64,000 nucleotides of DNA from an uncultured Nitrospiraceae bacterium (GCA_963705105.1 CAVPIW010000009.1:32001-96000); one strand, 5' to 3'. Numbered from the stretch's first letter, positions 35,888 through 63,113 are shown. Program-made: numbers and translations. Notes: generated from the sequence alone by a model not told the origin.

Positions 35888-36385
35888 TTATAACCCATTC
35901 CCCGACCTCCTCGCCCTGATTTTCTCGAGGGTCTCCCGGAAGTTCTCGTCTGCAGGCTTCAGTTCCGTCGCCTTCAGAGCCAGGGTCTCCGCCTCTGCGA
36001 GGTTTTCACCTTTGGTATAAAAAAGCCAGGCGAGGTTGTTGTATGCATCGGCGAGGGCAGGCCTCTCCCGGATGGCGCGGCGGTAATACGTCTCGGCGTC
36101 ATCCAGATCGCCCTTCTGAAAGGCGACGTTGCCCATGTAGAGAAAGGCCTCGGGCAGCTTCTTCGAGGCCCGGCGGTACTCCTCGAAGGCGGGATCGAGC
36201 TCGCCCTTCCTCTCATAGGCAAGGCCGAGGCTGATGTGCTCCTCCGGCGTGAGAGGGTCCTCGAGCACGATGATCCGGGGAAGGGAACAGGAGACCAGGG
36301 CACAGAAGCAAAGGAGAATCAGCATTAACCTTGAAGTTGCACGAAAAGGCGGGGGAAAGCGCCCCGCAGACATGTTCCCGATCAT
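35888..36385 (-). CDS. TPR-repeat lipoprotein
   Basis: LVSC lipobox and TPR motifs (HISLGLAY, YMGNVAF, AYNNLAW). ATGA coupling with the upstream gene. Confidence 0.85.
   Translation of the reverse strand: MIGNMSAGRFPPPFRATSRLMLILLCFCALVSCSLPRIIVLEDPLTPEEHISLGLAYERKGELDPAFEEYRRASKKLPEAFLYMGNVAFQKGDLDDAETYYRRAIRERPALADAYNNLAWLFYTKGENLAEAETLALKATELKPADENFRETLEKIRARRSGNGL
36329..36363 (-). repeat. MITE terminal remnant inside the TPR gene 5' end
   Basis: CCTTGAAGTTGCACGAAAAGGCGGGGGAAAGCGCC encodes GRFPPPFRATSR. Confidence 0.7.
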
Positions 36386-37041
36386 TGAGGTCTCACCCAA
36401 AGGGTCCAGTAATCCGTCTTTTTCCACATGCCGAGGAACTCCCCTCTCTCCATATGGGCAGCCTCGTCCAGGCCGGAATGGACCATGACACCGCGGTCAT
36501 CTATGCCAAAGACGACCATGTAGTGGTGGATCCGGTAAACCGAAATCCCCCGGTCGACGAGGACGATGACGGGAAAGCGGCCGCTGATCTTCTCCCGGAG
36601 ATCGTCCCAACTCCCCCGGTAATAATCAGCCTTCAGTCCCTTCTTCCGCGCATAGATCATGAGGTCGACGTTGAGCGTGCCCCTTGCCGCGGGGCTGAAG
36701 ATGTCCGCGGCGACGGATTCGGGAGAGACAGCGACACGCCAGAACTGCAGCACGCTCGCGAGGGACGCAGGCCCGCATTGGTACTCCTCCTGGGGGAAGA
36801 AGGGGACCCCCTGGATGATGATCATCGGCGACGGAGCCTCTTGAGAAGGTTTCTGCTCCGGCAGGGCGGCGCATCCCCAGGCCGCCAGGAGCAGCAAGGC
36901 CGGAATGAACCATGCGATTGCACGAAAAGGCAAGGCAAAGCGCCTCAATGCCTTTCTGATCGCTACGCTGCAGCCGGGGGGGCAGATATGGTTCAAAGCC
37001 TTTCCGGAAGTTCTATGCGACGGTATGATGAAGGTACGCAT
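36382..37041 (-). CDS. C39-like cysteine peptidase lipoprotein (PA2778 family); start uncertain
   Basis: VPFFPQEEYQCGPASLA, PVIVLVD, HYMVV and lipobox AWGC. The N-terminus overlaps a MITE remnant. Confidence 0.85.
   Translation of the reverse strand: MRTFIIPSHRTSGKALNHICPPGCSVAIRKALRRFALPFRAIAWFIPALLLLAAWGCAALPEQKPSQEAPSPMIIIQGVPFFPQEEYQCGPASLASVLQFWRVAVSPESVAADIFSPAARGTLNVDLMIYARKKGLKADYYRGSWDDLREKISGRFPVIVLVDRGISVYRIHHYMVVFGIDDRGVMVHSGLDEAAHMERGEFLGMWKKTDYWTLWVRPQ
36910..37028 (-). mobile_element. Degenerate MITE subtype C remnant in the C39 gene 5' region
   Basis: CCATGCGATTGCACGAAAAGGCAAGGCAAAGCGCCTCAA...GGCAGATATGGTTCAAAGCCTTTCC. Confidence 0.75.
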
Positions 37042-37076
37042 TTTCGTGATGGTGACGGCTGTTTGGATATTCAGGA

Positions 37077-37120
37077 CCGCAGGGCCGCCGGATTCCGTCT
37101 TATGTCCGGCGGCCCTGCGG
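37077..37120. terminator. Strong GC hairpin (16-bp stem) without a U-tract; terminator or mRNA stabiliser
   Basis: CCGCAGGGCCGCCGGA-N12-TCCGGCGGCCCTGCGG. Confidence 0.55.
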
Positions 37121-37147
37121 CTGTCGTGACCGGGAGGATTTCAACAT

Positions 37148-37537
37148 CTATTTGACGATTATCCTGTGTCCCGTCAACTGTATGATGACAATGATGAGAA
37201 TGATGATGACGAGGATGGCGATGATCACCCCTGCGGCATCACCCCCGACCTGCAGGTCGTCGATTTTGAGGGCAAGCTGATGAATCTGCTGGTCGTCAAG
37301 CTGCTCCAGTCTGCCGGCGATCTCCTCCTGCGTGAATCCGAGTTTTTCCATCCGTTCCCTGACGACCTTCATCTCCAGGATCTGCCGGATCTTATCAAGA
37401 TCGGCATGCCTGTCGACGCTTGTCAGGGCGGCCAGGTCGGACGGGGAGAAGCCCGCATCGACCTTCGGGGCAACGGCAAGAAGGGCCATAATCAGAACGA
37501 GATACCACGTGATGTGCTTCATAAAGGGAATCCTCAT
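37148..37537 (-). CDS. PA2779-family protein
   Basis: Signal peptide, EEIAGRLEQLDDQQIHQLA and VGG followed by a hydrophobic C-terminal tail. Next to a PA2778-like peptidase. Confidence 0.8.
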   Translation of the reverse strand: MRIPFMKHITWYLVLIMALLAVAPKVDAGFSPSDLAALTSVDRHADLDKIRQILEMKVVRERMEKLGFTQEEIAGRLEQLDDQQIHQLALKIDDLQVGGDAAGVIIAILVIIILIIVIIQLTGHRIIVK

Positions 37538-37578
37538 GCTCCGTATCACCTCCTTTCTCTTCGATCGGGAATAGTAAA

Positions 37579-37774
37579 CCTTATCGCTGCAATACACTCC
37601 CGGGAAAGGCGGGGCGTATGCGCCGAAAACCTTGCTGCGGCGACACCTGTATCGAGACTGAAGACGAGGCATAAGCCAATGTCAGGAGAATTGGGCATCT
37701 TTTCCGACACGGACACGCACTACTGACACTGTTTTCAGGGTGCTTCGCCCCGCCTTTCAATGCAACTAACACGG
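37579..37774 (+). mobile_element. MITE-like repeat, subtype A, TSD TAAA
   Basis: taaa-CCTTATCGCTGCAATACACTCCCGGGAAAGGCGGGGCG...CGCCCCGCCTTTCAATGCAACTAACACGG-taaa. Confidence 0.88.
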
Positions 37775-37784
37775 TAAACGCTCG

Positions 37785-38978
37785 TTACCGGTGCTTGTTC
37801 TGTTCAGCCCCTGGTGATGCCTCCGCTGCGGCACCGCATGTCCCGTCCTGCCCGGCACGATAGCGCTTCCGGGCCCTGCTGCCGATCGATGTGAGCACCT
37901 CGTAGGGGATGGTCCGCGCCCTCGCGGCGAGACCTGCGGCGTCGACGGCCTCCTCTCCCCCGTGACCGAGAAGGATGACATCGTCCCCCTCTTCCACGTC
38001 ATCGCAGCCGGTCAGGTCGATCATGGTCAGGTCCATGCAGACCCTCCCGACGACGGGATATCTCCTGCCCCTCACGACGACCTCGGCATTGTTCGAAAAG
38101 CAGCGGCCGTACCCGTCGGCATATCCGGCGGACATGACGCCGATGAGACTGGGCCTCGCCGTGACAAAGGTCCTGCCATAGCTGACGGGTGTGCCGGCGG
38201 GAAGCCTTCTGAGGGCCACAAGCCTCGCCTTCACTGTCATCACAGGTCTGAGAGTGTATGAAAAGTTTCCCTTGTGGCTTTCCGGCAGGGACAATGATCT
38301 CTCCACCGGTGAATACCCGTAGAGCATGAGCCCCGGCCGCACGGCATCAAAGTGGGATTCGGGGAGCGTCATGACGGCGGCGCTGTTGGCGATATGGTAA
38401 AGGGGGACTTCAATGCCCATGGCGGCGAGTCTCTGCCTGAGAGTCGCGAAGGTCGTGATCTGATGGTGTGCAAAAGAGACATCGAGCAGGTCGGCCTCGG
38501 AAAAGTGGCTCATGATCCCCCCGATGCGGATGCCTCTCAATGCGGCGATCCCTGCAATTTCAGAGTCCACATCTCCCGTCAGCCCCATCCGTCCCATGCC
38601 CGTATCGATCTTGACATGAATCGTGAGTGTCCGCCCCCGGCGTTCGGCTTCGTCGGAAAGGGCGGAGGCGGCTCTCCTGTCGCTCACAACGGGAATAAGA
38701 CCGTAACGGAAGACGTCCCTGAGATCGGGATCGAAAAAAACGATGACCGGCGCCGTTATGCCGGCGTCGCGCAGCTCCCTTGCCTCCTCGGTGAAAGCGA
38801 CACCGAGATACTCGACACGGAGCCTGGCGAGTTCACGGGAGACAGCGACAGCGCCGTGACCGTATGCATCGGCCTTAACGACGCCGATGACGGGTCGATG
38901 GGCCGCCAGGGCCCTGACCACCCCGAGATTCCGGGACAGCGCGTCAAGATCTATCTCTGCGACGGTTCCTCTATGCAT
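37785..38978 (-). CDS. alr: Alanine racemase
   Basis: VVKADAYGHG, HVKIDTGMGR, ANSAA, VRPG, GYADG, GRVCMD. Confidence 0.96.
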   Translation of the reverse strand: MHRGTVAEIDLDALSRNLGVVRALAAHRPVIGVVKADAYGHGAVAVSRELARLRVEYLGVAFTEEARELRDAGITAPVIVFFDPDLRDVFRYGLIPVVSDRRAASALSDEAERRGRTLTIHVKIDTGMGRMGLTGDVDSEIAGIAALRGIRIGGIMSHFSEADLLDVSFAHHQITTFATLRQRLAAMGIEVPLYHIANSAAVMTLPESHFDAVRPGLMLYGYSPVERSLSLPESHKGNFSYTLRPVMTVKARLVALRRLPAGTPVSYGRTFVTARPSLIGVMSAGYADGYGRCFSNNAEVVVRGRRYPVVGRVCMDLTMIDLTGCDDVEEGDDVILLGHGGEEAVDAAGLAARARTIPYEVLTSIGSRARKRYRAGQDGTCGAAAEASPGAEQNKHR

Positions 38979-39021
38979 CGATGGCTCGTGATGAACTTCG
39001 CCGTGCAATCACGGGAGAGGG

Positions 39022-39255
39022 TCAGGCCTTCTTGCCGCCCCCTTCACCTTCCTGTTTCTCCGGTTCGCCCTCCTTGCCTTCAGGGGCAGGCTTCTTGGGC
39101 GTTACATCGATCTCATCGGGTTCATTCGTCGCTTTTTTAAAATTCCTGATCGCCTCGCCGACGCCTTTTCCGATCTGCGGCAGGCGCGTGGCTCCGAAAA
39201 GCACGATGACGATGATCAGAATGATGATCAATTCCTGCATCCCGAGTCCGAACAT
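39022..39255 (-). CDS. tatA: Twin-arginine translocase TatA/E
   Basis: [29 protein letters not shown]. Confidence 0.95.
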
Positions 39256-39302
39256 AGAATCCTCCGCGTTGTTGGTAACGACCGAAGCCGGTGTATGACC
39301 CT

Positions 39303-39920
39303 TTATCCCCTGCCCCTTTGAAGGGTCCGCATGATTTCCTCAAGGTCCTCAGGGGTGTTGATATTCAGGAACGAACGGCCGAAGGGGTCCTTCGCCCTCA
39401 CCTTCTCCTCATCAACGAAGCGAGACTTTATCTCTGCCAGGAACCTCTTCATCGTCGTCTTTTCCCCGCCGATCGCCTCTTCGAGAAAAGGCAAAGCACT
39501 CCACGAGTATACACCAAAGAGGGGTTGCGGTTCACCATGGCAGACGGGGACGGTCGCATCGGGCGATGTCGTCTCCCGTGCCGCCTCATGTTCAGCGCGG
39601 ACGAGAGATATGACGCCGGCGTTTACAAGGGGCATATCGCAGGCCAGGACGAAGACATCGCCTCCGGCGTTCAGCAGCGCCGAATAGATGCCGGACATGG
39701 GCCCCCTCGACGGAAGCACATCGCCGATGAGGGGAACACCGAGATGGAAGTAGGCCTCAGGCATGTTCGTGCTGATCATGACCAGCGGGAACAGGCCGGA
39801 CAGGATACCGAGGGTCCTTTCAATGATCGTCGTCCCCTCGATTTGGATGAAAGACTTGAGGGCGGGAAACCGCCTGTTGCTTCCCCCGGCGAGAATGACG
39901 CCGGCAGCAACACCCGTCAC
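39303..39920 (-). CDS. mobA: Molybdenum cofactor guanylyltransferase
   Basis: [28 protein letters not shown]. Confidence 0.92.
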
Positions 39921-40741
39921 CGGACGGTGATCCCCGCATAGCCGACGACATGCTCATAATCGCCGCTCACCTCCGCCGATGTGGCGTATTTCACGAGCCG
40001 CGCTCCGCTCGCACCGAGCGCCCTGGCCGCAAAAAGCATGATGGTGGCGGGCATAACGCCGCACATCGATATCCTTTCCCGCTTCACCGTCCCGTAGAGG
40101 CCTTCGGGATCGAGGGCGAGGACCCTCTCGATTGCAAGCCCGTCGAGTCTCCGGGCCACCGTGTCGGGGACATAATGGCTCATGTCGGAACTCACTGCGA
40201 TCACGGCGGGGTATCCCGACCCTCTTATCGCCGCCGCAATGCTCTCTCCCACGGCCTGGCACATCTCCAGGCTGATCTGCATAACCGTGATGGGTACAAT
40301 CTTGACCGTGCTTGAAAAGTATGCGATGAAGGGGAGCTGGAGCTCAAGGGAGTGTTCATAGACGTGGGCCTGCACGTCATCGGAAACGATTCGCCCGGCG
40401 CCGGTGACCCTTTCCGCAAGGGCCTCGTCGATCTCGAATGACGCCGCCGGGATCTCCCACCGGCCCGACTTCATGATGGAGACGTCCGAACCCAGTCCCG
40501 TGTGGTTCGGACCGAGAAGCACGAAGGTCTGGGGAAACTCGATGGCGGAATACACGGCTCCGGCGACATGACCGGAATACATCAGTCCGGCGTGGGGAGA
40601 GACAAGGGCGATCACCTTCTCCCTGGCAGCCGTCTCAACGACATAATCGCCGACTTCCGACCGGAGCCCCTGGGCTGTGCCCGAATAAAACTGCCCTGCC
40701 ACGGCAGGACGACGGACGAGTGTGCGCGATGACCGCTCCAT
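39917..40741 (-). CDS. AmmeMemoRadiSam system protein B (MEMO1 family)
   Basis: RRPAVAGQFY, PHAG, GPNH, EHSLE, SSDMSHY, SMCG, VGYA. Confidence 0.93.
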   Translation of the reverse strand: MERSSRTLVRRPAVAGQFYSGTAQGLRSEVGDYVVETAAREKVIALVSPHAGLMYSGHVAGAVYSAIEFPQTFVLLGPNHTGLGSDVSIMKSGRWEIPAASFEIDEALAERVTGAGRIVSDDVQAHVYEHSLELQLPFIAYFSSTVKIVPITVMQISLEMCQAVGESIAAAIRGSGYPAVIAVSSDMSHYVPDTVARRLDGLAIERVLALDPEGLYGTVKRERISMCGVMPATIMLFAARALGASGARLVKYATSAEVSGDYEHVVGYAGITVR

Positions 40742-42111
40742 CAGTACACCTCCTCCTCATATTCATAAGAGAGGTTCGTGAAATCGACAAACCTCGTGCT
40801 GTCGGCGAGAAAGGTAAGCTGAAAGACACCGGTCGGCCCGTTCCTCTGTTTCGCCACGATCACCTCGGCCTTCCCCTTGTTCGCCGGATTATTCTTGTTG
40901 TAAACCTCATCCCTGTATAAGAAAAGGATGACATCGGCATCCTGCTCGATTGCGCCCGACTCCCTGAGATCGGCAAGGGTCGGCTTTTTTTCGCCCCTCT
41001 GCTCCACGGCCCTGTTGAGCTGGCTCAGGGCGATGACGGGGATCTTGAGCTCCTTCGCGAGGGCCTTCAGGGACCGCGAAATCTCCGATATCTCCTGCTC
41101 CCTTCGCTCGAAGTTCCCCCTGCTGCGCATGAGCTGGAGGTAATCGACGACGACGAGACTGAGGCCGCCGTGCTCCATCTTGAGTCTCCTCGCTTTTGCG
41201 CGGATCTCGAGCACGGTGATGGCCGACGAGTCATCGATGAAAATCGGCGCTTCGGCGAGACGCCCCGCGGCATTCGTCAGTTTCGGCCATTCCTCACGGC
41301 TGATGAATCCCTTTCTCACCCGTGACGAATCGACGAGGCTCTCGGCGCAGAGCATCCTCAGGGCAAGCTGTTCTTTCGCCATCTCGAGACTGAAGACGGC
41401 AACGGGCTCTTTGAGACTGATGCCGACATGCTGCGCGATGTTGAGGGCGAATGCCGTCTTCCCCATGCCGGGCCTGCCGCCGATGACGATGAGATCGCCG
41501 GGCTGAAACCCCGATGTCATCTCGTCGAGGTCCTTGAAACCCGAGGGAATGCCCGTGATCGCCTCCTTGCGGTCGAAGAGGTGCTCGATCATCTTGAACG
41601 TATCTTTGATGACATCCTTCATGCTCGCGAACGATGTCTTGGTCCTCTTGTCGGCGATGTCGAAGATCAGCCTTTCGGCATGATCGACCATCTCGTCGGC
41701 GTCGAGACCTTCCTCGTACACCTTCGTCGATATCTGCGTCGACGCCCTGATGAGGGACCTCAGGAGGGCCTTTTCCCGGACAATCTTGGCGTGGTAGGTA
41801 ATGTGCGCCGACGTGGGGACGGCGTTTGCAAGGAGGGAGAGGTAGGGCAGACCGCCGATCTCTTCAATCCCGTTGTCGCGCCTCAGGTAATCGCTGAGGG
41901 TCACGACGTCCATCGGCTCGTTGCGGTCGAAGAGGCCGAGCATGGCCCGGTAAATACGGCGGTGAGATTCCCTGTAAAAGTCCTCCGGTGAGAGGATCTC
42001 GATGGCTTTCGGCAGCGATTCGTTGTCGAGCAGGAGGGCGCCGAGCACCGACTGCTCCGCCTCGATGTTCTGCGGAGGGAGCCTGTCTATTGCGACATCG
42101 CCGTCTCTCAC
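40741..42111 (-). CDS. dnaB: Replicative DNA helicase
   Basis: PPQNIEAEQSVLG, GRPGMGKT, DYLQL, LSQLNR, DLRESGAIEQDAD. No intein is evident. Confidence 0.98.
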   Translation of the reverse strand: MRDGDVAIDRLPPQNIEAEQSVLGALLLDNESLPKAIEILSPEDFYRESHRRIYRAMLGLFDRNEPMDVVTLSDYLRRDNGIEEIGGLPYLSLLANAVPTSAHITYHAKIVREKALLRSLIRASTQISTKVYEEGLDADEMVDHAERLIFDIADKRTKTSFASMKDVIKDTFKMIEHLFDRKEAITGIPSGFKDLDEMTSGFQPGDLIVIGGRPGMGKTAFALNIAQHVGISLKEPVAVFSLEMAKEQLALRMLCAESLVDSSRVRKGFISREEWPKLTNAAGRLAEAPIFIDDSSAITVLEIRAKARRLKMEHGGLSLVVVDYLQLMRSRGNFERREQEISEISRSLKALAKELKIPVIALSQLNRAVEQRGEKKPTLADLRESGAIEQDADVILFLYRDEVYNKNNPANKGKAEVIVAKQRNGPTGVFQLTFLADSTRFVDFTNLSYEYEEEVY

Positions 42112-42155
42112 GTGATACGAACCCAGGGCCCTCCCGCAGGGCGGAGGAAAAACAG

Positions 42156-42608
42156 TTACTCCGCCTGCTCGGGGACGACGCTGACGGTGATTTCGGACGC
42201 CACGTCCCTGTGAATCTTGACGGTCACCGTATAGGTGCCGAGCCTCTTGATAGGCTCTTCGAGATCGATTTTCCTGCGGTCGACCTCGATCCCCTGCTTC
42301 TGGAGGGCCTCGGCGATGTCCATGACCGTGACGGAACCGAAGAGCTTCTCCTCGTCGCCTGCCTTCGCAGGAATCGTGACGGCCAGACCGGAGAGCCTGG
42401 ATGCCACTTCTTCGGCACCGGCCCTGACCTTGCGCGCCTTTTCCTGTATGATCCTCTTCTCGTGCTCGAGAGCCTTCAGGTTTCTCGGGTTCGCCTCGAC
42501 GGCAAACCCCTTCGGGATGAGGAAATTCCGTGCGAATCCGTCCTTGACGGACACCATCTCCCCGATCTGACCCAGACTCTTGACATCCTCTTTCAGAATA
42601 ACCTTCAT
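42156..42608 (-). CDS. rplI: 50S ribosomal protein L9
   Basis: [30 protein letters not shown]. Confidence 0.97.
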
Positions 42609-42722
42609 GCGACAGTTCTCCTCTCCATAAACATTTCTCAATCGTATCGGATTAGTATAAACGATTTCGATTCATTTCCTCCATGGCACGGAAGGAACAT
42701 CATATGCGACAAATACAGATTA

Positions 42723-42920
42723 GCCACAGAGAGCACAGAGGACACAGAGAAAAGCCTGGTTTGACGGTAAACGGCAAACAGGAGAAATTGGGGATCGTTG
42801 TGATCAGGAATTGTATGGGTAGCCGCAGGCTTCAGCCTGCGCTTGAAGCATATGTAAAAGCCTCCTCTCCGGTCTCGTTGCAGGAACGTCTTTCTCTGTG
42901 TTCTCCGTGACCTCTGTGGC
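42723..42920. repeat. Inverted repeat built of CACAGAG units enclosing a GTAG-type REP hairpin (42819-42841)
   Basis: GCCACAGAGAGCACAGAGGACACAGAGAAA ... TTTCTCTGTGTTCTCCGTGACCTCTGTGGC, with inner GTAGCCGCAGGCTTCAGCCTGCG. Confidence 0.75.
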
Positions 42921-42994
42921 AGAGTTGCCGTTTTTGTTTTGCGCGAGACCTCCTGAAATATATTCCTTCACTCACACTCACACCATCACTCACA

Positions 42995-43360
42995 CTAACT
43001 CTTCAGGTGCTCATGCAGGAAGGATCCGGGGATCATCCCGGCGGGAGCGGATAACAGCAGAAGCCTCTCGAAGGCCCGCTGACGGTCACGGCGGAACTCC
43101 TGTCCGCGGGCTGACTTGAGGACGACGAAATCCAGGTAGACGAACCACTCCCTGTCAGCGGCACGGAGAAAGCCGCCGCGGTAGCCCCCGGGGGAAGGCG
43201 TCGGTGGCTCCCCCTCCCAATGCTCAAGGGCATCCCAGACGGAAAGGAAACGGGGAACGATTCCCCGCATGATGACCCATTTCGGGTCCGGCCGGCTCGT
43301 GAAGAGTCTGACTCCTCCGACCCAGTCTTCACGCACGTCATTTTGTCTTGAGATGTTCAT
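42995..43360 (-). CDS. Hypothetical protein
   Basis: ORF of about 120 aa with plausible composition between repeat patches. No recognised motif. Confidence 0.5.
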   Translation of the reverse strand: MNISRQNDVREDWVGGVRLFTSRPDPKWVIMRGIVPRFLSVWDALEHWEGEPPTPSPGGYRGGFLRAADREWFVYLDFVVLKSARGQEFRRDRQRAFERLLLLSAPAGMIPGSFLHEHLKS

Positions 43361-43424
43361 ACACAACCGTCATGCAGATGTTCTTTCTTTGCGCTCTTTG
43401 CGGCTTTGCGCGAGTCTGACTTGA

Positions 43425-43641
43425 CCTTGTCGTTGCATACGCTTTTTGGAAAGGCGGGGCTGGGGTGAATGCGCCGAAAACCTTGCTGCGCGACTCCTGT
43501 ATCAGAACGACAGACGGTCTATACACCAATGATCGATGACACGAAGAGTGGAATCCTGAATGACGAACCTGACGAGGCTCATCGTCGTCTTCAGCAAGGC
43601 TTTGAGGCGCTTCGCCCCGCCTTTTATACGCAACTGTAAGG
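43425..43641 (+). mobile_element. MITE-like repeat, subtype A, TSD TTGA
   Basis: ttga-CCTTGTCGTTGCA...GAAAGGCGGGGC...CGCCCCGCCTTTT...GCAACTGTAAGG-ttga. Confidence 0.88.
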
Positions 43642-43731
43642 TTGAGATATATTCCCGATACCGGCACGATCAATACACCGCATTCCTTTCACTCACACTC
43701 ACACTGACACTCGCACTGCATTTCCGGCGAG

Positions 43732-44367
43732 TCACGATCCGGGTTGCCCGGCCGGCAGAGTGTTGAGTGCCCTGGCCATGTCATCAGCCAGACGGTCCAA
43801 AGCCCTGCTCATGGCGGCAACGAGAGACTCATAGCCATCTCCCGACGTCTGTTCGACATAGGATGCCTCGCGGACAAGAAGCACGGCGGAGTCCTTTTCG
43901 TCAAACAGCGTCCATAAAGCCCTCAGCATCACTTTCCCTCCGGTCTCCCCTTCGAACTCCTCCACAAGCACGGCGATGCGATAGGAGACGGGGATCTGGA
44001 ACGAGGCAACGGGCCTCCATGGTATGACGGTGAAGCGATCAGCGGGGACCCGGGCCGAGATGTGCTGGGCAAGAAAACGGGGCACGGCGCTTCTCAGCGG
44101 TCCGGCCCATCGTTCGAACTCGGCAATATAAATTTCGTTCCCGGCACCGCGGGTGACGATCTGGGGCCTGTCGAGATAGTCGGGGATGTTGACCGGGCCG
44201 ACGGCGATGACAGAAGCGATCCCTTCCGCCACCCTCTGCTCCGATGCGGGAGTCCCTGATACCCCCAGTGTGTAAAAACGTGACGACTGGGTGCTCCCGC
44301 ACCCCATAATCGAAACGATCAGACTACCCAGCAGGACGATCATAGTCAGAGCACGACCATGTCTCAT
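43732..44367 (-). CDS. PqiC-family (ABC transport auxiliary) lipoprotein
   Basis: Lipobox MGC, VGPVNIPDYLDRPQIV, RWAGPL. Confidence 0.9.
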   Translation of the reverse strand: MRHGRALTMIVLLGSLIVSIMGCGSTQSSRFYTLGVSGTPASEQRVAEGIASVIAVGPVNIPDYLDRPQIVTRGAGNEIYIAEFERWAGPLRSAVPRFLAQHISARVPADRFTVIPWRPVASFQIPVSYRIAVLVEEFEGETGGKVMLRALWTLFDEKDSAVLLVREASYVEQTSGDGYESLVAAMSRALDRLADDMARALNTLPAGQPGS

Positions 44368-45377
44368 TTCTTCACTCCTCCCCCTGCTCTTTTGCCTCTG
44401 ATCGGTGAGTCGGGATACCTTTCCAGCAGGTCGGCAAGATCCCGCAAGGATTGTGAGAGCGCGCTGATTTCCTCGAGAGTTTCGCTGATCCGGAACCAGA
44501 GGCCGTCCGTTTTCTGCAACGTCAACTGCGCCCTTTCCGCCGTCCTGCGCACCTCATCCAGGGAAGAACGTGCCGATGCCAGTGTCTCCTTCATGCCCGC
44601 TGCGATCTCACCGGAAGCCCCTTCATTCATGGCTATCGTCTTTTCAGCCTGCACCAGCGTGGACCGCGCAGTCCTGAGGGTTTCCTGGACACTTGCGGAA
44701 ATCGGTTTCACCTCGGCGTCTGCGTCTTGTGCGAGCTTATCAGCGCTCTTCAGGGCGTTGTCCAGAGACTTCAGGCTCGCCTGCAGGTCCGGGGAATTGA
44801 CCAGTTTATCCATGCCGTTGGCTATGCTCTCAAGCTTCTTGCCGATCTCCTGCCACGGTATCTCCTCAAGAGTCTTTCTGAGGCGTTCAAAATCCGTCGG
44901 TATGGTCGGCACTTCGGGGTGGCTCTTGTCGAGTCCGTAGAGTTTTCCTTTCTGCTCCGGCGGGTACATGTCGACGGCCACGATGAGCAGTCCTGTCACG
45001 AAGCTCTGGAGCTGAAGCTGTGCCCTGAGTCCCTGTTCTATGAGTCCGGACAGTTCTTCTCCCTCACCGATCTCTACACTATCTCCGAAGACCGAAACGG
45101 ATTCCGGGTCCATCTCCGTAATCACACGGACGAGAAACTCCTTCTTCTTCGCTATGTAGATAAGGTCGACGGCGGCGACCTGCCCGATCTTGACGCCGCG
45201 AAAGACGACGGGAGCGCCCACATTGAGGCCCTTTGCCGAGCCCTCGAAGAACATCACGTGTTTGTTGACCTTCTTGAAGAACTTGCCCGAGCCGAAGACC
45301 ATCAGGCCTGCGACGACAAGGGCGATCGCGCCTATGACAAAAACTCCGATGAGGGTCTTGTTCGCCTGCTTACTCAT
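44364..45377 (-). CDS. MlaD/MCE family protein
   Basis: FEGSAKGLNVGAPVVFRGVKIGQV, QSFVTG, a coiled-coil tail and PDSPIRG. Confidence 0.92.
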   Translation of the reverse strand: MSKQANKTLIGVFVIGAIALVVAGLMVFGSGKFFKKVNKHVMFFEGSAKGLNVGAPVVFRGVKIGQVAAVDLIYIAKKKEFLVRVITEMDPESVSVFGDSVEIGEGEELSGLIEQGLRAQLQLQSFVTGLLIVAVDMYPPEQKGKLYGLDKSHPEVPTIPTDFERLRKTLEEIPWQEIGKKLESIANGMDKLVNSPDLQASLKSLDNALKSADKLAQDADAEVKPISASVQETLRTARSTLVQAEKTIAMNEGASGEIAAGMKETLASARSSLDEVRRTAERAQLTLQKTDGLWFRISETLEEISALSQSLRDLADLLERYPDSPIRGKRAGGGVKK

Positions 45378-45407
45378 ACGTCGCTCCTTCCGCCCGCTCT
45401 CTTCACA

Positions 45408-53426: not shown

Positions 53427-53457
53427 TCAGCTCATCGCCCGGGCCGACCGGGATTGA

Positions 53458-54078: not shown

Positions 54079-54845
54079 TGAGTAATCTCCTCTTTCATCT
54101 CATCCCCGGCCGCCTTCACCTCCGCCGCGACCTTCTCCAGCTCCGCCTCCCTGCTCTTTTCGAGGAGGCTCCTGCCCTCTCGTATCGCCTCGGACATCTT
54201 TGCGGACAGCAGCTTGATCGCCCGGATGGCGTCGTCATTTCCGGGAATAACATAATCCACCTCGTCAGGGTCGCAGTTCGTGTCGACAACGGCGACGATC
54301 GGTATTGACAGCCGGCGCGCCTCAGCAATTGCGATGCGCTCCTTCTTCGGGTCGATCACGAAAAGCGCCCCTGGCAGCGTCCCCATATCCTTTATGCCGA
54401 TGAGGTTCTTGTCCAGTTTCAGCCGCTCCTTTTCGAGCTTCGCAACTTCTTTCTTTGTGAGGACCGAGTACGTCCCGTCTTCCTTCATCGTCTCGATTTT
54501 TTTCAGTCTCTCGATGCTCTTCCTGACCGTCGTATAGTTGGTGAGCATGCCGCCGAGCCATCTGCTGTTGACGTAAAAGGAATTCGACTTCTTCGCCTCG
54601 TCGGCGATCGCGTCCTGGGCCTGCTTCTTCGTCCCGACAAAAAGGACCGGCGCTCCCGTCACCGCCACATTCCTGACGAAATTGTATGCATCCTCGATGC
54701 CTTTCACCGTCTTCTGGAGATCGACGATGTGGATGCCGTTCCTCTCGCCGAAGATGTACTTCTTCATCTTCGGATTCCAACGTTTTACCTGATGTCCGAA
54801 ATGGACACCCGACTCGAGCAACTCCTTCATTGTGACAACACCCAT
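54075..54845 (-). CDS. rpsB: 30S ribosomal protein S2
   Basis: [42 protein letters not shown]. Confidence 0.98.
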
Positions 54846-54854
54846 GCTGTACTC

Positions 54855-54935
54855 CTCCTCTGGTTTGCCTCCGCCGTATTCCCCTTCACCCGTCTTCGCG
54901 GGACCACCGGGGAATCGCATTCAGGCGTGTGTTTT
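54855..54935 (-). ncRNA. rpsB leader (t44-like autoregulatory RNA)
   Basis: Located in the rpsB 5' UTR: ACACAC...GGTG...GGAGGC..AACC with internal stem ATTCCCC/GGGGAAT. Confidence 0.6.
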
Positions 54936-54979
54936 TGAATAGAAAAATTAGCATAAAGTATGCTGAATTATCAAGTGAA

Positions 54980-55164
54980 CTCTAGATACGCCCTATCGAA
55001 AGGCGGGGCGTATGCTCCGAAAACCTTGATGCGGCGACACCATAACCGTTACGGAAGGCGACGTTTCAAGCCGATGATCGAAAAAGTGTTTACTGACACT
55101 GACACTCACACTGAAACTGTTTTTCAGAGCGCATACGCCCCGCCTTGTCATGCAACTGGGAAGA
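54980..55164 (+). mobile_element. MITE-like repeat, subtype A variant (flanks TGAA/CGAA)
   Basis: AAGGCGGGGCGTATGC...GCATACGCCCCGCCTT perfect 16-bp arms, with ACTGAC/ACTCAC cargo. Confidence 0.8.
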
Positions 55165-55170
55165 CGAACC

Positions 55171-55845
55171 TCACAGCCGGCTGAATTTATCGAGGTCCTC
55201 GTTCTTCCCGATCAGGACGAGCAGGTCCCCGGCCGATACGGTATCGGTCGCGAGGGGGTTGAGGATCCACCGCTCCTTTTCGACTCCCCTTTCTCCCTCG
55301 GTCCTCTTAATTGCAATAACGCTTACACCATAGTTTCTCCTGAGCTGGCTTTCTCTCAGGGTCTTTCCGGCAAGCATCCCCGGCGCGGGCAGCTCGACGA
55401 TACTGAAATCCGGCGAAAGCTCGAGCTGCTCGACGATGCCCGGCCTGATCAGGCTCTGGGCGATCCTGATCGCCATGTCGCGTTCGGGATAGACGATCCT
55501 GTCGACTTTGAGGTTCTCAAGAACCCTTCCGTGGAGCTGCGTGACGGCTTTTGCCACGATGTTCTTCACGCCAATCTCCTTGAGGATCATGACGACGAGG
55601 ATGCTCGCCTCGATGTTTTCGCCGATGCTCACGACGGCGACATCGACGTTCTGGACGCCCACGGACCGGAGTGCCTTGTCGTCCATGGCATCGAGGACGA
55701 CGGCATAAGTAACGAGGTCGGCAAGGGCCTTCACCCTCTCCTCGTCATTGTCGATGGCAATGACTTCACAGTCCATTTCAGCCAATGTTTTCGCAACGGA
55801 ATATCCGAATCTCCCGAGCCCGATAACGGCATACTGCTTATTCAT
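55171..55845 (-). CDS. ktrA: KtrA/TrkA potassium uptake NAD-binding subunit
   Basis: VIGLGRFG, VYPERDMA and an RCK_C domain. Confidence 0.9.
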   Translation of the reverse strand: MNKQYAVIGLGRFGYSVAKTLAEMDCEVIAIDNDEERVKALADLVTYAVVLDAMDDKALRSVGVQNVDVAVVSIGENIEASILVVMILKEIGVKNIVAKAVTQLHGRVLENLKVDRIVYPERDMAIRIAQSLIRPGIVEQLELSPDFSIVELPAPGMLAGKTLRESQLRRNYGVSVIAIKRTEGERGVEKERWILNPLATDTVSAGDLLVLIGKNEDLDKFSRL

Positions 55846-57182
55846 CCCAGGATAACCCTCCCTTCAGGGTATCTGAATCGTTCCTCTGTTTTTCTGATGA
55901 GGGCGACGCCCACTGTCAGCGGTCCCAGCCTGCCGGCGAACATGGTGAGGCTGATCATGATTTTGCCGAATGGTGTAAAGAGTGCCGAAAGGCTCCTCAC
56001 CCCTCCGTCCCCGATGGAGAGGCCGACCGTTCCAAAGGCGGACGTCACTTCAAATAACGTTGAGAGGTATTTCGTGTCCTCTCCCCTGATAATGTTGAAG
56101 GTGACCACGACGACAAGGATGAAGGCAAGCGTGATGAGTAAAAAAGCCCTTGACACGACATCCTGCGAGATCCTGCGTCTGAACATCACCGTGTCCCTCC
56201 TGCTCCGGAGCGTCGCCCAGAGGGCCATGATCATGACAGCGAAAGTCGATGTCTTCACTCCTCCTCCGGTGCTGCCGGGCGACGCCCCGATGAACATGAG
56301 AATGATTGTCAGGAACAGCGTATCCAGCCGCAGCGTCGAGTAATCGACGGTATTGAACCCGGCAGTCCGCGGGGTGACCGATGCGAAATAGGAGACGAGG
56401 ATCTGTTCCCGGAGGGTCATCTGCCCGAAGGTAAGAGGATTGCCGAGCTCAAAGAGAAAGATGATGACCGCTCCGGCGACGATGAGGATCGCCGTCGTCG
56501 TCAGGACGACCTTTGAATGAAAGGAGAGCTTCAGGACCCTCTTCCGCGCAAAGGCATAGACATCGCTGATGACGATGAACCCGATCCCGCCCAGGATGAT
56601 GAGGCTCGTGATGACGAGGTTGATGATGATGTCCCCCCGGTATTTCATCAGGTTCTCCGAGAAAGTGCTGAAACCGGCGTTGTTGAAGGCGGAGACGGCG
56701 TGGAAAAGGCCGTAGAAAAAGGCTTCACCAAGCGGATAGTCGAGAGAGAAACGAAGGCTCAGCAACAAAGCGCCGGTCAGTTCAAAGAGAACGGTGATGA
56801 GAAGCACCGCTTTGGTGAACCGTACGACACCCTCCAGACTGAGGACATTGAGGGCCTCCTTCATGATGAGGCGCTCGCCGAGCCCGATCCTCTTGCCGAT
56901 CATCAGGGAGATGATCGTCGCCGATGTCATGTATCCGAGACCGCCGAACTGGATGAGGAGCATGATGATAATCTGGCCGGCTGTCGTAAATTCGTTGGGC
57001 GTATCCAGCACGATAAGACCGGTGACGCAGACTGCCGACGTCGATGTAAAGAGGGCGTCGACGAAGGATATGCCCTTCGGGGTCGAAAAGGGGAGCATGA
57101 GAAGCCCCGTTCCCGTGAGGATGATCGCAAGAAACCCGATGACGAGGATCTGGGAGGGATTGAGCTTCTTCGTCAAACCCAT
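55842..57182 (-). CDS. ktrB: KtrB/TrkH potassium uptake membrane subunit
   Basis: SAVCVTGL, SAFNNAGF, PRTAGF, SAFGTVGLS. Confidence 0.92.
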   Translation of the reverse strand: MGLTKKLNPSQILVIGFLAIILTGTGLLMLPFSTPKGISFVDALFTSTSAVCVTGLIVLDTPNEFTTAGQIIIMLLIQFGGLGYMTSATIISLMIGKRIGLGERLIMKEALNVLSLEGVVRFTKAVLLITVLFELTGALLLSLRFSLDYPLGEAFFYGLFHAVSAFNNAGFSTFSENLMKYRGDIIINLVITSLIILGGIGFIVISDVYAFARKRVLKLSFHSKVVLTTTAILIVAGAVIIFLFELGNPLTFGQMTLREQILVSYFASVTPRTAGFNTVDYSTLRLDTLFLTIILMFIGASPGSTGGGVKTSTFAVMIMALWATLRSRRDTVMFRRRISQDVVSRAFLLITLAFILVVVVTFNIIRGEDTKYLSTLFEVTSAFGTVGLSIGDGGVRSLSALFTPFGKIMISLTMFAGRLGPLTVGVALIRKTEERFRYPEGRVILG

Positions 57183-57187
57183 CGTTG

Positions 57188-58041
57188 TCAGTCCGTCGGG
57201 ATGCTGACCATCCCGCGCCTGACGGAGTCGGCGACGCGTGCCACCCTGGCCATCTCCCTGACGTCGTGCACCCTCACGATATGGGCGCCGTTGAAGATCG
57301 AAATCGCGACGGCAGCCGCCGTGCCTTCCAGTCGCTCCGAAGGAGGGGCGTCACCGAGGATCTTTCCGAGGAAGGCCTTCCGCGATACGCCGATGACGAT
57401 GGGGTGTCCCAGTTTGAGAAACTCGCCTAGGTCCCGGATGATCTGCAGGTTATGGTCGAAGGTCTTGCCGAAGCCGATGCCGGGGTCGATCATGACCATG
57501 CCGGGGGGAATGCCTGCCCTCGCGGCGATCGCGATGCTTTCCCTGAGGTATGCGGTGACCTCCGGAATGAGCGCTTCGTAGGTGGGATTCACCTGCATGA
57601 CCTTCGGCTTGCCCCTGATGTGCATGACGATGACGGGCACACCGGCGCGGGCGACGACGTCCGCCATCTCCGGATCGAACCGGAGGCCGCTGATGTCGTT
57701 CACCATGGAGGCGCCGGCGTCGAGGGCCTGCCGCGCCACGTCGGCCTTGCAGGTATCGATCGATACGGGAACGGAGACGGCCCGCGAGACGGCCCTGATG
57801 ACGGGGATGGTGCGCCGGAGCTCCTCGTCCCGACTCACGGGGTCGGACCCGGGCCTTGTCGATTCTCCGCCGATGTCGATGATGTCGGCGCCTTCTTCGG
57901 CGAGCCTCAGGGCATGTGCGACGGCGACTTCGCCGTCAAAGAAGAGGCCGCCGTCGGAGAAGGAGTCGGGGGTGGTGTTCACCACTCCCATGATGTGGGT
58001 CCTGGCTGTGAGGTTAAGGGAAAAGCTCCGCCATGACAGGA

Positions 58042-58045
<4 letters not shown>
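57188..58045 (-). CDS. folP: Dihydropteroate synthase
   Basis: [35 protein letters not shown]. Confidence 0.96.
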
Positions 58046-59853
<1,808 letters not shown>

Positions 59854-59857
59854 AGCC

Positions 59858-60589
59858 TCAGTATTTTAACATATTTTCTTTCAGCATCTCCTGCTGAATT
59901 TTGATGAGATCGAGGTTCCCCTTTTCCGCGAGGGAGAGCATGACGTCGAGCTGGGGCAGTGAGAACGGTGTCGTTTCGGCGGTCCCCTGGATCTCGACGA
60001 AGTGGCCGCTGCCCGTCATGACGACGTTCATGTCCACCTCTGCGGCCGAGTCCTCGGCATAGCAGAGGTCGAGCCGTGGTTCGCCGCTGACGATGCCGAC
60101 ACTGACGGCGGCGAGATGATCACGTATGGGGTTCCTCGCTATCGCGCCCCGCTTCAGCGCCTGGCGGAAAGCGTCGCTGAGGGCGATGAAGGCACCGGTG
60201 ATCGAGGCGGTCCTCGTGCCTCCGTCGGCCTGGATCACGTCGCAGTCGACCCAGGCCGTGCGCTCGCCGAAGGCCGTGAGGTCGACGACGGCCCGGAGCG
60301 CCCTGCCGATGAGCCTCTGGATCTCCTGGGTCCGTCCGCCGAGACGGCCCGACGTCGCCTCCCGCATCGTCCGCGTGTGCGTTGCACGGGGGATCATGCC
60401 GTATTCGGCCGTCACCCAGCCCCTCTTCTGATCTCTCATAAAGAAGGGGACCTTTTCCTCGATCGTCGCCGTACAGATCACCTTCGTGTTGCCGATCTCG
60501 ATCAGCACCGATCCTTCGGCATACTGTATGTAGTTCCTCGTGACCGACACCTTTCTCAGTTCATCGTTCTTTCTTCCGTCAGGCCTCAT
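59858..60589 (-). CDS. rph: Ribonuclease PH
   Basis: [36 protein letters not shown]. Confidence 0.97.
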
Positions 60590-61410
60590 GATCCCTCTTT
60601 TCCTTTCAGTTTGATCGACAGCACGTCTCCCATCCTCTGTTCCAGGAACCGCTCACCGACGACGGCGAATTTTTCAGGCGAGTCGGTGACGAAGAACCTC
60701 CTGGCCGGGCGCTCCTCCGACCGGTTTTCCAACCCCGCCCCGGCGAGCACATCACGGACGACCCGCGCCGTCTCGACGGCTGAATCGATCAGGGCCACAT
60801 CACCCAGCACCTCCTGAATGACCTTCTTCAGCAGGGGGTAGTGCGTGCATCCGAGAACGATGGCATCGATGCCGATCTCCTTCAGATGTGCAAGATAACG
60901 CTCCGCCACCATCGTCGCAATGGGACCGTCCGTCCACCCCTCCTCGACGAGGGGAACGAAAAGAGGGCAGGGCTTTGCAACGACCTCTATGTCCGCGTCG
61001 ATCGCCTGGATCGCCCTGATATAGGCGCCGCTCCTGATCGTCGCCTCGGTGCCGATGACCCCGACCCGCTTGACCTTCGTCCTTGCCGTCGCAGTCTTCG
61101 CGCCCGGCTCGATCACACCGATGACGGGAATGGGGACCCGCTGGCGGATCTCCTGCAGGCAGATGGCCGACACGGTGTTGCAGGCCACAACGAGGAGCTT
61201 GATGTTCTGGCTCAGCAGAAAGTCGGTGCACTCGAACGAATACTGGGTCACCGTGTCCGCCGACCTCGTGCCGTAGGGAACCCGTGCCGTGTCGCCGAAA
61301 TAGACGATGCCCTCGTACGGCAGGATACTGCTCACCTCCTTGAAAACGGTGAGTCCGCCGATACCCGAGTCGAAGATGCCGACGGATTGATCCCTGACAT
61401 CCCGGCCCAC
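60586..61410 (-). CDS. murI: Glutamate racemase
   Basis: [23 protein letters not shown]. Confidence 0.97.
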
Positions 61411-61412
61411 TC

Positions 61413-62018
61413 CTATCCCCCTCCCTGTTTCACCGTCTCACGGAGCGGGTGAAGGGCGAAGAAATGTCCGCCGATGCTTTCGACCTCTTCTCCTTCGATC
61501 AGTATCTTGACGTTTTCCATACCCGTGACATTCGACGCAAGGGTGTCGAGCATCGATTTGAGGAAAAAAAACTCGTCCGCCGCATCACCCCGGAAGTGCC
61601 GCCTTATGTCGTCCGAGAGGTTCACATAGAGCATGCCCTCGCTGTCACGATATATGCCGAGCACCTTCGTGTCCCGCATCCCCTCGCGGAGCCCTTTCAG
61701 GTACTCCGAGAGCACGGCTTCCGCCATCTTGAGAGGATGCTGATGGGCTCTGACGGTCGCGACAGTGGCGGAAACGCCGCCGTCGGCGGGCAGGAATATG
61801 CGCACCGAGACGGTGTCGGCCGCCCCCGGTGCAGGAGCTTTCGCCTGCCCCGCGTCCTCCCCGGGCGCCTTTGAGACAGGGGACTCATCGTCCTGGCCGA
61901 AATAGTACTTCGTCGCCACCCATCCGGCGACGACGGCTGCGACGAGCACAACGGCTGCGATCAGGACAGTCCTGACGCTGATGCCGTTCTTCTGTGGTCC
62001 TTTTCCCGATGTGTTCAT
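61413..62018 (-). CDS. GerMN-domain protein
   Basis: N-terminal TM, LYVNLS, VKILIEG..VESIGGH. Usual amidase-GerMN-murI-rph context. Confidence 0.8.
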   Translation of the reverse strand: MNTSGKGPQKNGISVRTVLIAAVVLVAAVVAGWVATKYYFGQDDESPVSKAPGEDAGQAKAPAPGAADTVSVRIFLPADGGVSATVATVRAHQHPLKMAEAVLSEYLKGLREGMRDTKVLGIYRDSEGMLYVNLSDDIRRHFRGDAADEFFFLKSMLDTLASNVTGMENVKILIEGEEVESIGGHFFALHPLRETVKQGGG

Positions 62019-62066
62019 CGTATCTTTACAATACACGAGGCACCGGAAAAAATCGATCAGGCGGGG

Positions 62067-63113
62067 TCAGAGGGAACTCGCGATCGCCTGTATGAGCCGG
62101 GCTTTCGCCGCCTCGTCATACTTGAAAAGGTCCGGAGAGGGCAGTTCGATGAGAAGGGCCGGGGTCTGCACCCGGCTCAGCATCGGCAGGGGCAGCTTCT
62201 CCTGCCGCACCGTCAGGTTGAGGTCGCGCTTGAGGTTTTGCACGATGTTGCCGGTGACCGTCGTTTCAATCCCCCTGCCCGCGGCCGTCTTCGTCTCCTG
62301 GCGCTCGTTTGCGGCCTCGCCGCCATCGCCTGCAGGCGCCGTAAAGACGACGACATCGCCCCTCCGCGAGAGATGGAGGCTGATGACCATGTCAGGCGCC
62401 GCCCTGCGCACCAACCGGATCCTCTCCTTGAGGGGGAGTCTCTGGTCTCCCTTTCGGGTCAGCTGGACGCGCTTCCCCTTTTTCGTCAGGGCCTGGGAAA
62501 GGTCTTTCGAAAGGGCAAGTACGAGGTTTTTTTCCATGAAACCCTCACCCTGGAGGCCGTGGTCGACCCCCCCGTGGCCGGCGTCGATGACGACAGTTTT
62601 CGGCGAAGGCGGCGCTTCGGGCTGCGGCGGAGCAGCGGCGGGCTTTTCCGGCTGTGCCTGCTGGGGAGGCTGGACGGGCGCCCCGGTATAGACATCGATG
62701 ACGAGCCTCGGCGGCGTCGTCAGTCTCGACACGGAATGGGTGCTCATTTGGTTAAACATGATCGTGCACCTGTCCTCGGAGGCGATGATCGTGACGCCGG
62801 GCCCCATTTCCGTCTGCACATTTTTTCCGAGGGGACCTTTCCTTTCGGTCATGAATTCGACGGGCCGCGGGAAGATGACCTGGAGAACCGGTCCTGTCAT
62901 GCGTTTGACCGACGCCTGCTGTGTCACGCTGTCGGAAGCGATGAAAACAATGCGGACGAAATCCACGTGGCGGCCCGTCCGGACGATGACACGGTTGTCC
63001 TCCTGGGCGGCGGCCCCTCCGGCAAGGAGAGCGAAAATGCAGAGCGATACTTTTACGGCATAAAAAGACGGGGCAAAGTGCCTCAACGCCTTGCCGATAG
63101 CGACATTGATCAT
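62067..63113 (-). CDS. N-acetylmuramoyl-L-alanine amidase (Amidase_3 with AMIN-like N-terminal domain); start inside MITE
   Basis: PPRLVIDV, VIDAGHGG, EK, SLH, LIE. The signal peptide n-region is repeat-derived. Alternative starts run up to 63227. Confidence 0.85.
   Translation of the reverse strand: MINVAIGKALRHFAPSFYAVKVSLCIFALLAGGAAAQEDNRVIVRTGRHVDFVRIVFIASDSVTQQASVKRMTGPVLQVIFPRPVEFMTERKGPLGKNVQTEMGPGVTIIASEDRCTIMFNQMSTHSVSRLTTPPRLVIDVYTGAPVQPPQQAQPEKPAAAPPQPEAPPSPKTVVIDAGHGGVDHGLQGEGFMEKNLVLALSKDLSQALTKKGKRVQLTRKGDQRLPLKERIRLVRRAAPDMVISLHLSRRGDVVVFTAPAGDGGEAANERQETKTAAGRGIETTVTGNIVQNLKRDLNLTVRQEKLPLPMLSRVQTPALLIELPSPDLFKYDEAAKARLIQAIASSL

Follow-up and report, generated by a model that had tools for sequence, protein, structure and literature searches.

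Outward arms of an abundant miniature inverted-repeat element at the signal-peptide regions of three exported proteins of an uncultured Nitrospiraceae bacterium: probably tolerated rather than recruited

Why should the same short repeat be read in frame, directly in front of the hydrophobic h-region, at the start of three exported proteins? The question is raised by a stretch of 64,000 nucleotides (the window; CAVPIW010000009.1:32001-96000 of assembly GCA_963705105.1, positions counted from its first letter) from an uncultured Nitrospiraceae bacterium. The proteins are a TPR lipoprotein, a C39-like cysteine peptidase lipoprotein and an N-acetylmuramoyl-L-alanine amidase, and the repeat belongs to a miniature inverted-repeat transposable element (MITE) specific to this lineage, of which it forms the outward-reading arm. 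An earlier note on this DNA had taken the repeat-encoded, ALRRFAPPF-like peptide for a case of repeated domestication, in which the element donates the basic n-region of secretion signals. The analysis points to a plainer answer. The MITE lies in or directly before the three signal-peptide regions, and its arm is probably translated as extra n-region residues that are tolerated and not recruited. The in-frame position of the three peptides, directly before a hydrophobic h-region, stands as the earlier note had described it, and all three lie on the minus strand. The features concerned are as follows.

35888..36385, minus strand: gene of the TPR lipoprotein (Pfam TPR families).
36329..36366, minus strand: arm remnant of about 28-38 nt between the stop codon of the C39 gene (36382-36384) and the h-region of the TPR lipoprotein (nhmmer model positions 24-51, 16.2 bits, E 0.024).
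36382..37041, minus strand: gene of the C39-like cysteine peptidase lipoprotein (open reading frame; Pfam Peptidase_C39_2 and Peptidase_C39).
36910..37028, minus strand: 119-bp MITE derivative in the signal-peptide coding region of the C39 gene (nhmmer 51.1 bits; its ends resemble CCTT...AAGG).
36917-36966, minus strand: outward arm of the C39 MITE derivative, encoding ...AIRKALRRFALPFRAIAW.
62067..63113, minus strand: gene of the N-acetylmuramoyl-L-alanine amidase with an N-terminal signal peptide (Pfam Amidase_3).
63047..63257, minus strand: full-length MITE before the amidase (nhmmer 48.8 bits; frame 1 open from end to end, 69 codons).
63055-63104, minus strand: outward arm of the amidase MITE, encoding ...MINVAIGKALRHFAPSFYAV directly before the h-region.

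The C39-like lipoprotein offers the most complete record of an insertion. Its frame reads MRTFIIPSHRTSGKALNHICPPGCSVAIRKALRRFALPFRAIAWFIPALLLLAAWGC, and the arm peptide runs into the h-region as ...KALRRFALPFRAIAW-FIPALLLLAAWGC. Perfect copies of TTCA (37029-37032 and 36906-36909) flank the 119-bp derivative 123 nt apart. Together with one TTCA the derivative makes up 123 nt, or 41 codons, which separate the native M-R-T from the h-region without a change of frame. The native ATG at 37039-37041 stays in frame through the 41 inserted codons into FIPALLLLAAWGC. This pair of TTCA copies and the in-frame native ATG indicate that the element inserted in frame between the n-region and the h-region and that the n-region was not replaced. 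Removal of the element and one TTCA joins M-R-T-F to IPALLLLAAWGC, which gives an ordinary lipoprotein leader of 16 residues. Between the arm and the h-region there is no ATG, GTG or TTG, and one TTG falls within the h-region. A start inside the arm was also considered for this gene, and was dropped given the TTCA duplication and the in-frame native ATG. A search for the pre-insertion C39 allele found none, the best metagenome relatives of the C39 protein being only 56-57% identical.

The fusion is also present in contigs of other public runs. Over 36382-36992 the X3 contig has 28 differences and no gap (95% identical), and over 36466-37004 the X4 contig has 17 differences and no gap; inside the element, 50 letters of the X3 contig replace 5 of the window, a net gain of 45 nt, which leaves the reading frame intact. 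Among 289 ungapped arms, a TTG at model codon 35-37, 9 nt past the GAGG of the arm, occurs in the C39 copy alone. Had this TTG been a conserved adaptation it could have been read as a repair mutation, an idea ruled out by the X4 contig, which spans the locus and has CTG, and by the same letter in most of the contig depth of X2, X3 and X5. Since it is CTG in the X4 contig, the TTG appears to be a recent, strain-level change.

The amidase differs in that its start seems to have been taken over by the element. Here the frame reads ...MINVAIGKALRHFAPSFYAVKVSLCIFALLAGGAAAQED, with the arm peptide joined to the h-region as ...KALRHFAPSFYAVKV-SLCIFALLAGGAAA. Upstream the frame extends as far as 63260 and is then closed by a TGA at the far end of the MITE; a second, eroded arm adjoins this end at about 63275-63335. 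The stretch from the arm to the h-region contains no ATG, GTG or TTG, and the in-frame starts before the h-region (ATG 63113, TTG 63086, TTG 63188, GTG 63218 and GTG 63227) are all inside the MITE. Given the TGA at its far end and the want of a start between arm and h-region, the amidase start likely lies within the element, at ATG 63113, TTG 63086 or further upstream.

The h-regions themselves are well supported by comparison. The search for C39 orthologs matched 26 genomes, none of them from the same genus and with identities of about 50%, and in 11 of the 11 loci read a lipoprotein-type leader directly precedes the conserved VPF(Y/H)xQE.YQCGP block. Likewise, in all 11 amidase orthologs read the conserved (V/I)R(I/V)G.H.DF.RIVF block is preceded by a hydrophobic leader. 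As all the orthologs read of both proteins carry signal peptides, and at the same place, the h-regions here can be regarded as real, and the comparison with orthologs which the earlier note had suggested bears it out on this point. Read by eye, the leaders consist of a positively charged n-region, an h-region and a lipobox Cys or A-x-A site, and the h-regions and the Cys or AAA sites align with those of the orthologs.

The TPR lipoprotein is the ambiguous member of the three. Its frame reads ...MIGNMSAGRFPPPFRATSRLMLILLCFCALVSC, the remnant peptide passing into the h-region as ...MSAGRFPPPFRATSRL-MLILLCFCALVSC. The remnant ends in AAGG and is followed by TTAA (36325-36328), the final A of which opens the ATG at 36323-36325 of MLILLCFCALVSC. 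A start at this ATG 36325, the first codon of the h-region, would leave a leader of 12 residues without charge. Further upstream lie ATG 36373 and ATG 36385, the latter overlapping the C39 stop as ATGA with GGTGA 7 nt upstream. In relatives whose TPR genes have clear starts the n-regions are charged (for example MKKGIYLL.. and MKNLKLRSS..), which is why we lean towards an upstream start at ATG 36385 or 36373. The TPR gene follows the C39 gene in all relatives read, and the mature N-terminus C-x-[LFM]-P-R-I-I-x-L-D-D-P is found in 10 of 11. In contigs of runs X3 and X5 the match to the window breaks off at 36382 on one side and at 36366 or 36325 on the other, and thus the C39-TPR junction differs between strains. 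At six of the relatives' loci (L002, L005, L006, L007, L011 and L012) an ATG in the TPR frame (M-E/G-K-D/N-x-x-L-D) overlaps the C39 gene at its 3' end. Of these, L005 and L011 have no ATG from the C39 stop to the TPR h-region, and L011 has no GTG or TTG there either. The TPR lipoprotein family may have long leaders that overlap the upstream gene.

The element itself is abundant and confined in its distribution. An nhmmer profile of the arm, made from 13 copies in the window, gives 599 matches at E<=0.1 in the 4.23-Mb genome, 444 at E<1e-3 and 288 at >=45 bits. A 27-mer of the arm, up to 2 mismatches being allowed, was counted 262 times in this genome and not once in a sample of 150 other genomes of the order; its reversed control gave 0. 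The length is 210-220 bp in 86 of 95 measured copies, typically about 213 bp, far too short to leave room for a transposase gene. The element begins with CCTTATCGTTGCA and ends with TGCAACNNNAAGG, its ends having the form CCTT...AAGG. The left end reads CCTTATCGTTGCA...GAAAGGCGGGG...GCGCC...CCTTGCTG..GGCGAC, and the right end is its imperfect reverse complement, closing with ...TGCAACNNNAAGG; read by eye from printed copies, the inverted arms extend over about 65 nt, and the inverted pair was also detected within one copy in the window. Identical 4-nt flanks, the target-site duplication, are present at 42 of 64 full-length copies with canonical ends and are A/T-rich, mostly TTTA, TTAA, TAAA or TATA. 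The earlier note had counted the three copies at the secretion signals among the most eroded, which is true only of the TPR remnant, with its 16.2 bits and E of 0.024. The other two arms are mid-range, that of the C39 gene with 51.1 bits and 84% identity to the consensus (39th percentile) and that of the amidase with 48.8 bits and 79% identity (26th percentile of 444 arms), the median of the 444 arms being 48.95 bits.

What an arm can contribute to a gene depends on the frame in which the gene abuts it. Frame 1 is stop-free and reads (V)AIS(K/E)ALRRFAPPF(H/Y)AT; in a subfamily, ..QFQMIMLAISKALRHFVPPFH, it is open across the whole element. Frame 2 is also stop-free, reads ..RLQQGFEALRPAFSCN and has ..Q-G-F-E-A-L-R-P-A-F-S-C-N as its outward end, the dominant subfamily having an ATG about 40 codons upstream as a frame-2 start. 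Frame 3 has a TGA and then the ATG of CATGCAAC. The ungapped arms have a TTG at the Leu of ALRRF (model positions 20-22) in 267 of 289 cases and the frame-3 ATG (model positions 45-47) in 185 of 289. An SD-like (Shine-Dalgarno-like) GAGG lies within the arm and is suitably spaced only for a variant with TTG; starts of this genome have GGAG or GAGG 4-9 nt upstream. From the want of alternative starts we infer that downstream genes would use starts internal to the arm. No sigma-70-like promoter was found in the arms, a consensus scan giving 0 promoter-like sites in 36250-37250 and, in 62950-63450, one at 63347-63376 that is outside the MITE. A terminator-like hairpin followed by a T-run is seen at 36349-36367 and 36931-36947 (minus strand), where the T-run corresponds to the codons for P-P-F. 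In about 41 of 136 coding frames that abut an arm, the first start is at codon 3-8 past the arm core, within some 15 nt of the element end. The element end (AAGG plus the 4-nt duplication) may serve as a stand-in for a displaced ribosome-binding site.

The same arm also abuts genes of proteins that are not exported, among them the gene of the GTPase Era.

34326..34375, minus strand: arm of a further MITE copy (34318 to about 34626) before Era (nhmmer 61.5 bits).
33406-34332, minus strand: gene of the GTPase Era, single-copy, with its only available start inside the arm, in frame 3.

Era is usually an essential gene. Frame 3 of its arm has a TGA and then TTG 34345-34347, with GAGG 4 nt upstream, and ATG 34330-34332. 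Past the arm there is no ATG, GTG or TTG for 63 codons, and the GTPase domain begins at residue 23. In 9 of the 16 Era relatives read the protein starts with M-E-K or M-Q-S-E-K, 3-5 residues before FRSGY, a distance that here amounts to 20 or 25 codons. Era is thus likely to start at the arm's own TTG (34347) or ATG (34332).

A search for further cases took the 79 arm-abutting coding frames without ATG, GTG or TTG in the first 12 codons past the arm, scanned them against Pfam and asked in which of them a domain begins ahead of the first start on offer. Besides Era, frame 3 gives an RlmB-like methyltransferase (domain at residue 12, first start at codon 19) and a BioF-like aminotransferase (domain at 38, first start at 90), and frame 2 an AlkD-like repair protein (domain at 9, first start at 37). 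In frame 1 are a DUF3187 protein, whose residue 28 corresponds to profile position 23 and whose first start is at 47, and a pseudopilin, with its N_methyl motif at 9 and its first start at 19. The Wza-like exporter, also in frame 1, has its domain at 22 and first start at 35; its short arm remnant is preceded by an ATG of the gene's own. A di-haem peroxidase, which has a signal peptide, lies past the frame-3 ATG, but has a GTG as well. It is likely that the arm gives start codons to the cytoplasmic Era, RlmB-like, BioF-like and AlkD-like proteins in frames 2 and 3. An insertion of another kind, within a gene, is found elsewhere in the genome.

G000 contig C17:40452-41783 (locus L193:153-1484): 443-codon frame of a GT9 heptosyltransferase with MITE-like sequence at about residues 166-226.

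This frame has 232 codons upstream and 217 codons downstream of a low-scoring arm, and its Pfam match lies only past the insert (profile positions 92-242). It looks like, and is possibly, an in-frame internal insertion of the kind known from Rickettsia palindromic elements (RPEs).

If the basic frame had been recruited, an excess of genes joined to frame 1 might be looked for across the genome, and the earlier note itself had taken a lack of in-frame enrichment of the motif at N-termini as refuting its idea. The counts show no such enrichment. The frame at the arm end stays open for >=100 codons in 41 (frame 1), 51 (frame 2) and 70 (frame 3) of the 444 arms; with a filter for coding potential (codon log-odds >=0.1 per codon, trained on long frames) the numbers are 30, 34 and 47 (n=111), and in the wider set of all 599 arm matches 37, 43 and 56. 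There is no excess of frame 1 (30/111, binomial p = 0.19, on the low side). The nominal excess of frame 3 on raw open frames (70/162, chi-square p = 0.018) is no longer significant after the coding filter (47/111, p = 0.055). Six-frame translation of the genome yields 152 matches to the ALRRFAPPF-type motif, of which 20 are followed by >=80 open codons and 12 of these are coding, leaving 140 of 152 without a coding frame after them. Of the 12 coding motif leaders, only those of C39, the amidase and the pseudopilin have no start of their own after the motif. A hydropathy rule for h-regions past the arms gave 6, 4 and 3 matches in frames 1, 2 and 3; it was set aside as too crude and the matches as too few, and it also flagged a cytoplasmic CxxCxxCC protein.

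What does distinguish frame 1 is the kind of protein to which it is joined. All six frame-1 fusions (C39, amidase, TPR, DUF3187 protein, pseudopilin and Wza-like exporter) are exported, as against one exported and five cytoplasmic among those in frames 2 and 3, with the GT9 heptosyltransferase counted in (Fisher p = 0.015, post hoc). To this extent the earlier note is borne out, in that the ALRRFAPPF frame recurs in six exported leaders. Its idea of the arm as a donor of n-regions overreaches, and at the C39 gene the native ATG and M-R-T are intact 123 nt upstream.

It is proposed that the MITE would land at A/T-rich, TNNA-like 4-nt sites, which would be common around gene starts in this genome of 57% G+C, and that insertions at gene starts would persist only if the new or extended N-terminus does no harm. 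In frame 1 the element would add from 11 to more than 40 basic, acid-free residues, which an n-region could absorb and which signal peptidase would remove. Such an addition fits a removable n-region, and hence only exported proteins would keep frame-1 fusions. For genes cut off from their native start, as those of the amidase, the DUF3187 protein and the pseudopilin, the start of translation would be an ATG or TTG that the element itself contains. A frame-3 fusion would add only a few residues through the ATG or TTG of the arm, tolerable on cytoplasmic proteins such as Era. The simplest reading of the pattern is a filter rather than recruitment, and nothing in this analysis shows the arm to improve export.

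Several observations weigh against this proposal. The ATG that directly follows the TPR remnant means that translation of the remnant is not required. Counted from the native ATG, the C39 signal peptide has 57 residues, which is unusually long. None of the candidate starts of the amidase has a well-placed SD motif, with nothing at all before ATG 63113, and the candidate starts inside arms in general have poor or oddly spaced ones, such as AAGG 2 nt before a TTG. In the outward direction the arm core resembles a weak terminator (a small G+C hairpin and a T-run), which would oppose read-through. The split between exported and cytoplasmic proteins is post hoc, covers 12 genes and rests on a list of fusions drawn up partly by eye, and the criterion for a fusion overlooks any gene that, like C39, happens to have a start within 12 codons of the arm, which makes the list a lower bound.

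The arm might instead not be translated at all, the genes starting downstream of it as at the TPR ATG 36325, or C39 and the amidase using non-canonical starts or being damaged. The arm is stop-free in two of three frames, and so any gene abutting it in those frames reads into it; moreover, most arm-abutting genes have a start of their own a few codons past the element, the TPR ATG is at the very first codon of the h-region and the TPR genes of several relatives also have no clear charged n-region or canonical start. Such an artefact of the reading frame is nonetheless unlikely, as neither C39 nor the amidase has an ATG, GTG or TTG between arm and h-region, save the TTG inside that of C39, as both have intact frames of good coding potential and belong to families whose orthologs all need a signal peptide, and as the same argument applies to the single-copy and usually essential Era. 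Selected domestication, by which the basic ALRRFAPPF peptide would have been recruited time and again as a good n-region and its frame kept by selection, draws on the exclusively exported nature of the six frame-1 fusions, on the TTG 9 nt past GAGG that only the C39 copy (1/289) possesses and on the 45-nt strain difference that keeps the frame. It is decidedly unlikely in view of the missing frame-1 excess (30/111, p = 0.19 on the low side), the 140 of 152 motif matches with no coding frame after them and the cytoplasmic genes that use the same arm in other frames. The C39 gene, with its native start and n-region intact upstream, had nothing that needed replacing, and its TTG is CTG in the locus-spanning X4 contig. 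The element was not found in the 150 other genomes of the order, so that there is no long-term conservation to cite. With no in-frame excess, with other frames likely providing starts to cytoplasmic proteins and with a start-creating TTG that is specific to a strain, the domestication claimed by the earlier note is not upheld.

An explanation limited to the TPR copy is a translation relay, in which the remnant would be kept in frame for ribosomes that finish C39 to restart at the ATGA and be carried into the TPR gene. The overlap of ATG 36385 with the C39 TGA, the GGTGA 7 nt upstream, the frame that is open through the remnant into the TPR gene and the adjacency of the two genes in all relatives read are what such a relay would look like. 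By analogy, the mycobacterial interspersed repetitive units (MIRUs) are intercistronic repeats with short relay frames, and in them as at the C39-TPR junction the start of a repeat frame overlaps the upstream stop; unlike in MIRUs, the frame here does not end before the downstream gene but continues into it. A relay has only a slim chance of being right, being a single case at a junction that differs between strains (the X3 and X5 contigs stop at 36382 and 36366 or 36325), and with the remnant still translated as the TPR leader it would overlap the proposal of a tolerated leader extension.

A more speculative extension of that proposal, which we consider improbable, is that the ends of the MITE have evolved to be safe on insertion. 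Two stop-free frames, a basic and acid-free peptide and a third frame with GAGG and a TTG or ATG would then constitute a form of self-mitigation that let copies reach the hundreds. If this were true, hits at gene starts would regenerate an N-terminus, in the form of a leader extension on exported proteins and a short tag on cytoplasmic ones, and the arm would be a portable module of translation start and n-region rather than junk.

None of this calls for a new mechanism, as there are published descriptions of MITE-gene fusions, of repeats that donate starts and of a signal peptide derived in part from a MITE. In-frame fusions with genes are known from two reviews for RPEs, ERIC (enterobacterial repetitive intergenic consensus) and BOX elements and Anabaena MITEs (PMC10969869, PMC3184786). 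The element shares with these that it is a small, non-autonomous repeat with an open frame that is read through within a gene, here C39 and possibly the GT9 heptosyltransferase. A frame that, as in RPEs, is open from the native start is true of C39 (ATG 37041) and not of the amidase, which has a stop at the far end of its MITE. Nearly half of the RPEs are reported to lie in genes (PMC10969869, PMC3184786), unlike the roughly 12 fusions here among 444-599 arms, which moreover cluster at N-termini and signal peptides and not inside folded domains.

Fusions of MITEs with predicted signal peptides have also been reported by Delihas (PMC2229807), and as in the case described there MITE-coded residues fall within the predicted signal peptide of an exported protein. 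That fusion was proposed to create a new exported protein, whereas the proteins considered here are exported in all relatives and have had an n-region lengthened or replaced; a further difference is that one element is involved at six loci. Neisseria REP2 and similar repeats of Borrelia bring with them a promoter, a ribosome-binding site and the start ATG for the gene that follows (PMC3184786). Like REP2, the arm would be a dispersed repeat that supplies the start of an abutting gene, as seems to be so for Era, the RlmB-like and BioF-like proteins and the amidase. Unlike REP2, it has no sigma-70-like promoter that could be found and belongs to a MITE with terminal inverted repeats and target-site duplications, not to a dedicated 5' expression cassette. 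A full-text literature search found no paper on MITE arms as n-regions, a paper on Microcystis among its results dealing with another subject, and the term 'signal peptide' does not occur in PMC10969869.

What makes the case valuable is that it shows cleanly, at several loci of one genome, how N-termini can be reshaped when a mobile repeat multiplies in a burst. Twelve genes appear to carry residues or starts coded by the element, single-copy Era among them, and the pattern is a simple one, as the long basic frame survives on exported proteins only. For annotation it implies frequent errors in the start codons and signal peptides called in metagenome-assembled genomes that are rich in MITEs. 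The genome also offers a natural experiment on how much junk the n-region of a signal peptide tolerates.

A few smaller features of the window and the genome may be added. Window positions 4152-4451 are 100% identical to 5680-5979, as are 5411-5523 to 6939-7051, both pairs being 1528 nt apart; this marks a recent tandem duplication of about 1.5 kb that takes in one MITE copy. At 27260-27859 MITE modules form two head-to-tail units of 300 nt that are 96% identical. The genome encodes BamA-like (POTRA plus Omp85) and MlaE proteins. Runs of CACTCA/CACTGA-type hexamers adjoin MITE ends at 42962-43002, 43683-43723, 55084-55124 and 63669-63709, and in some frames these read T-L-T-L or H-T-D-T.

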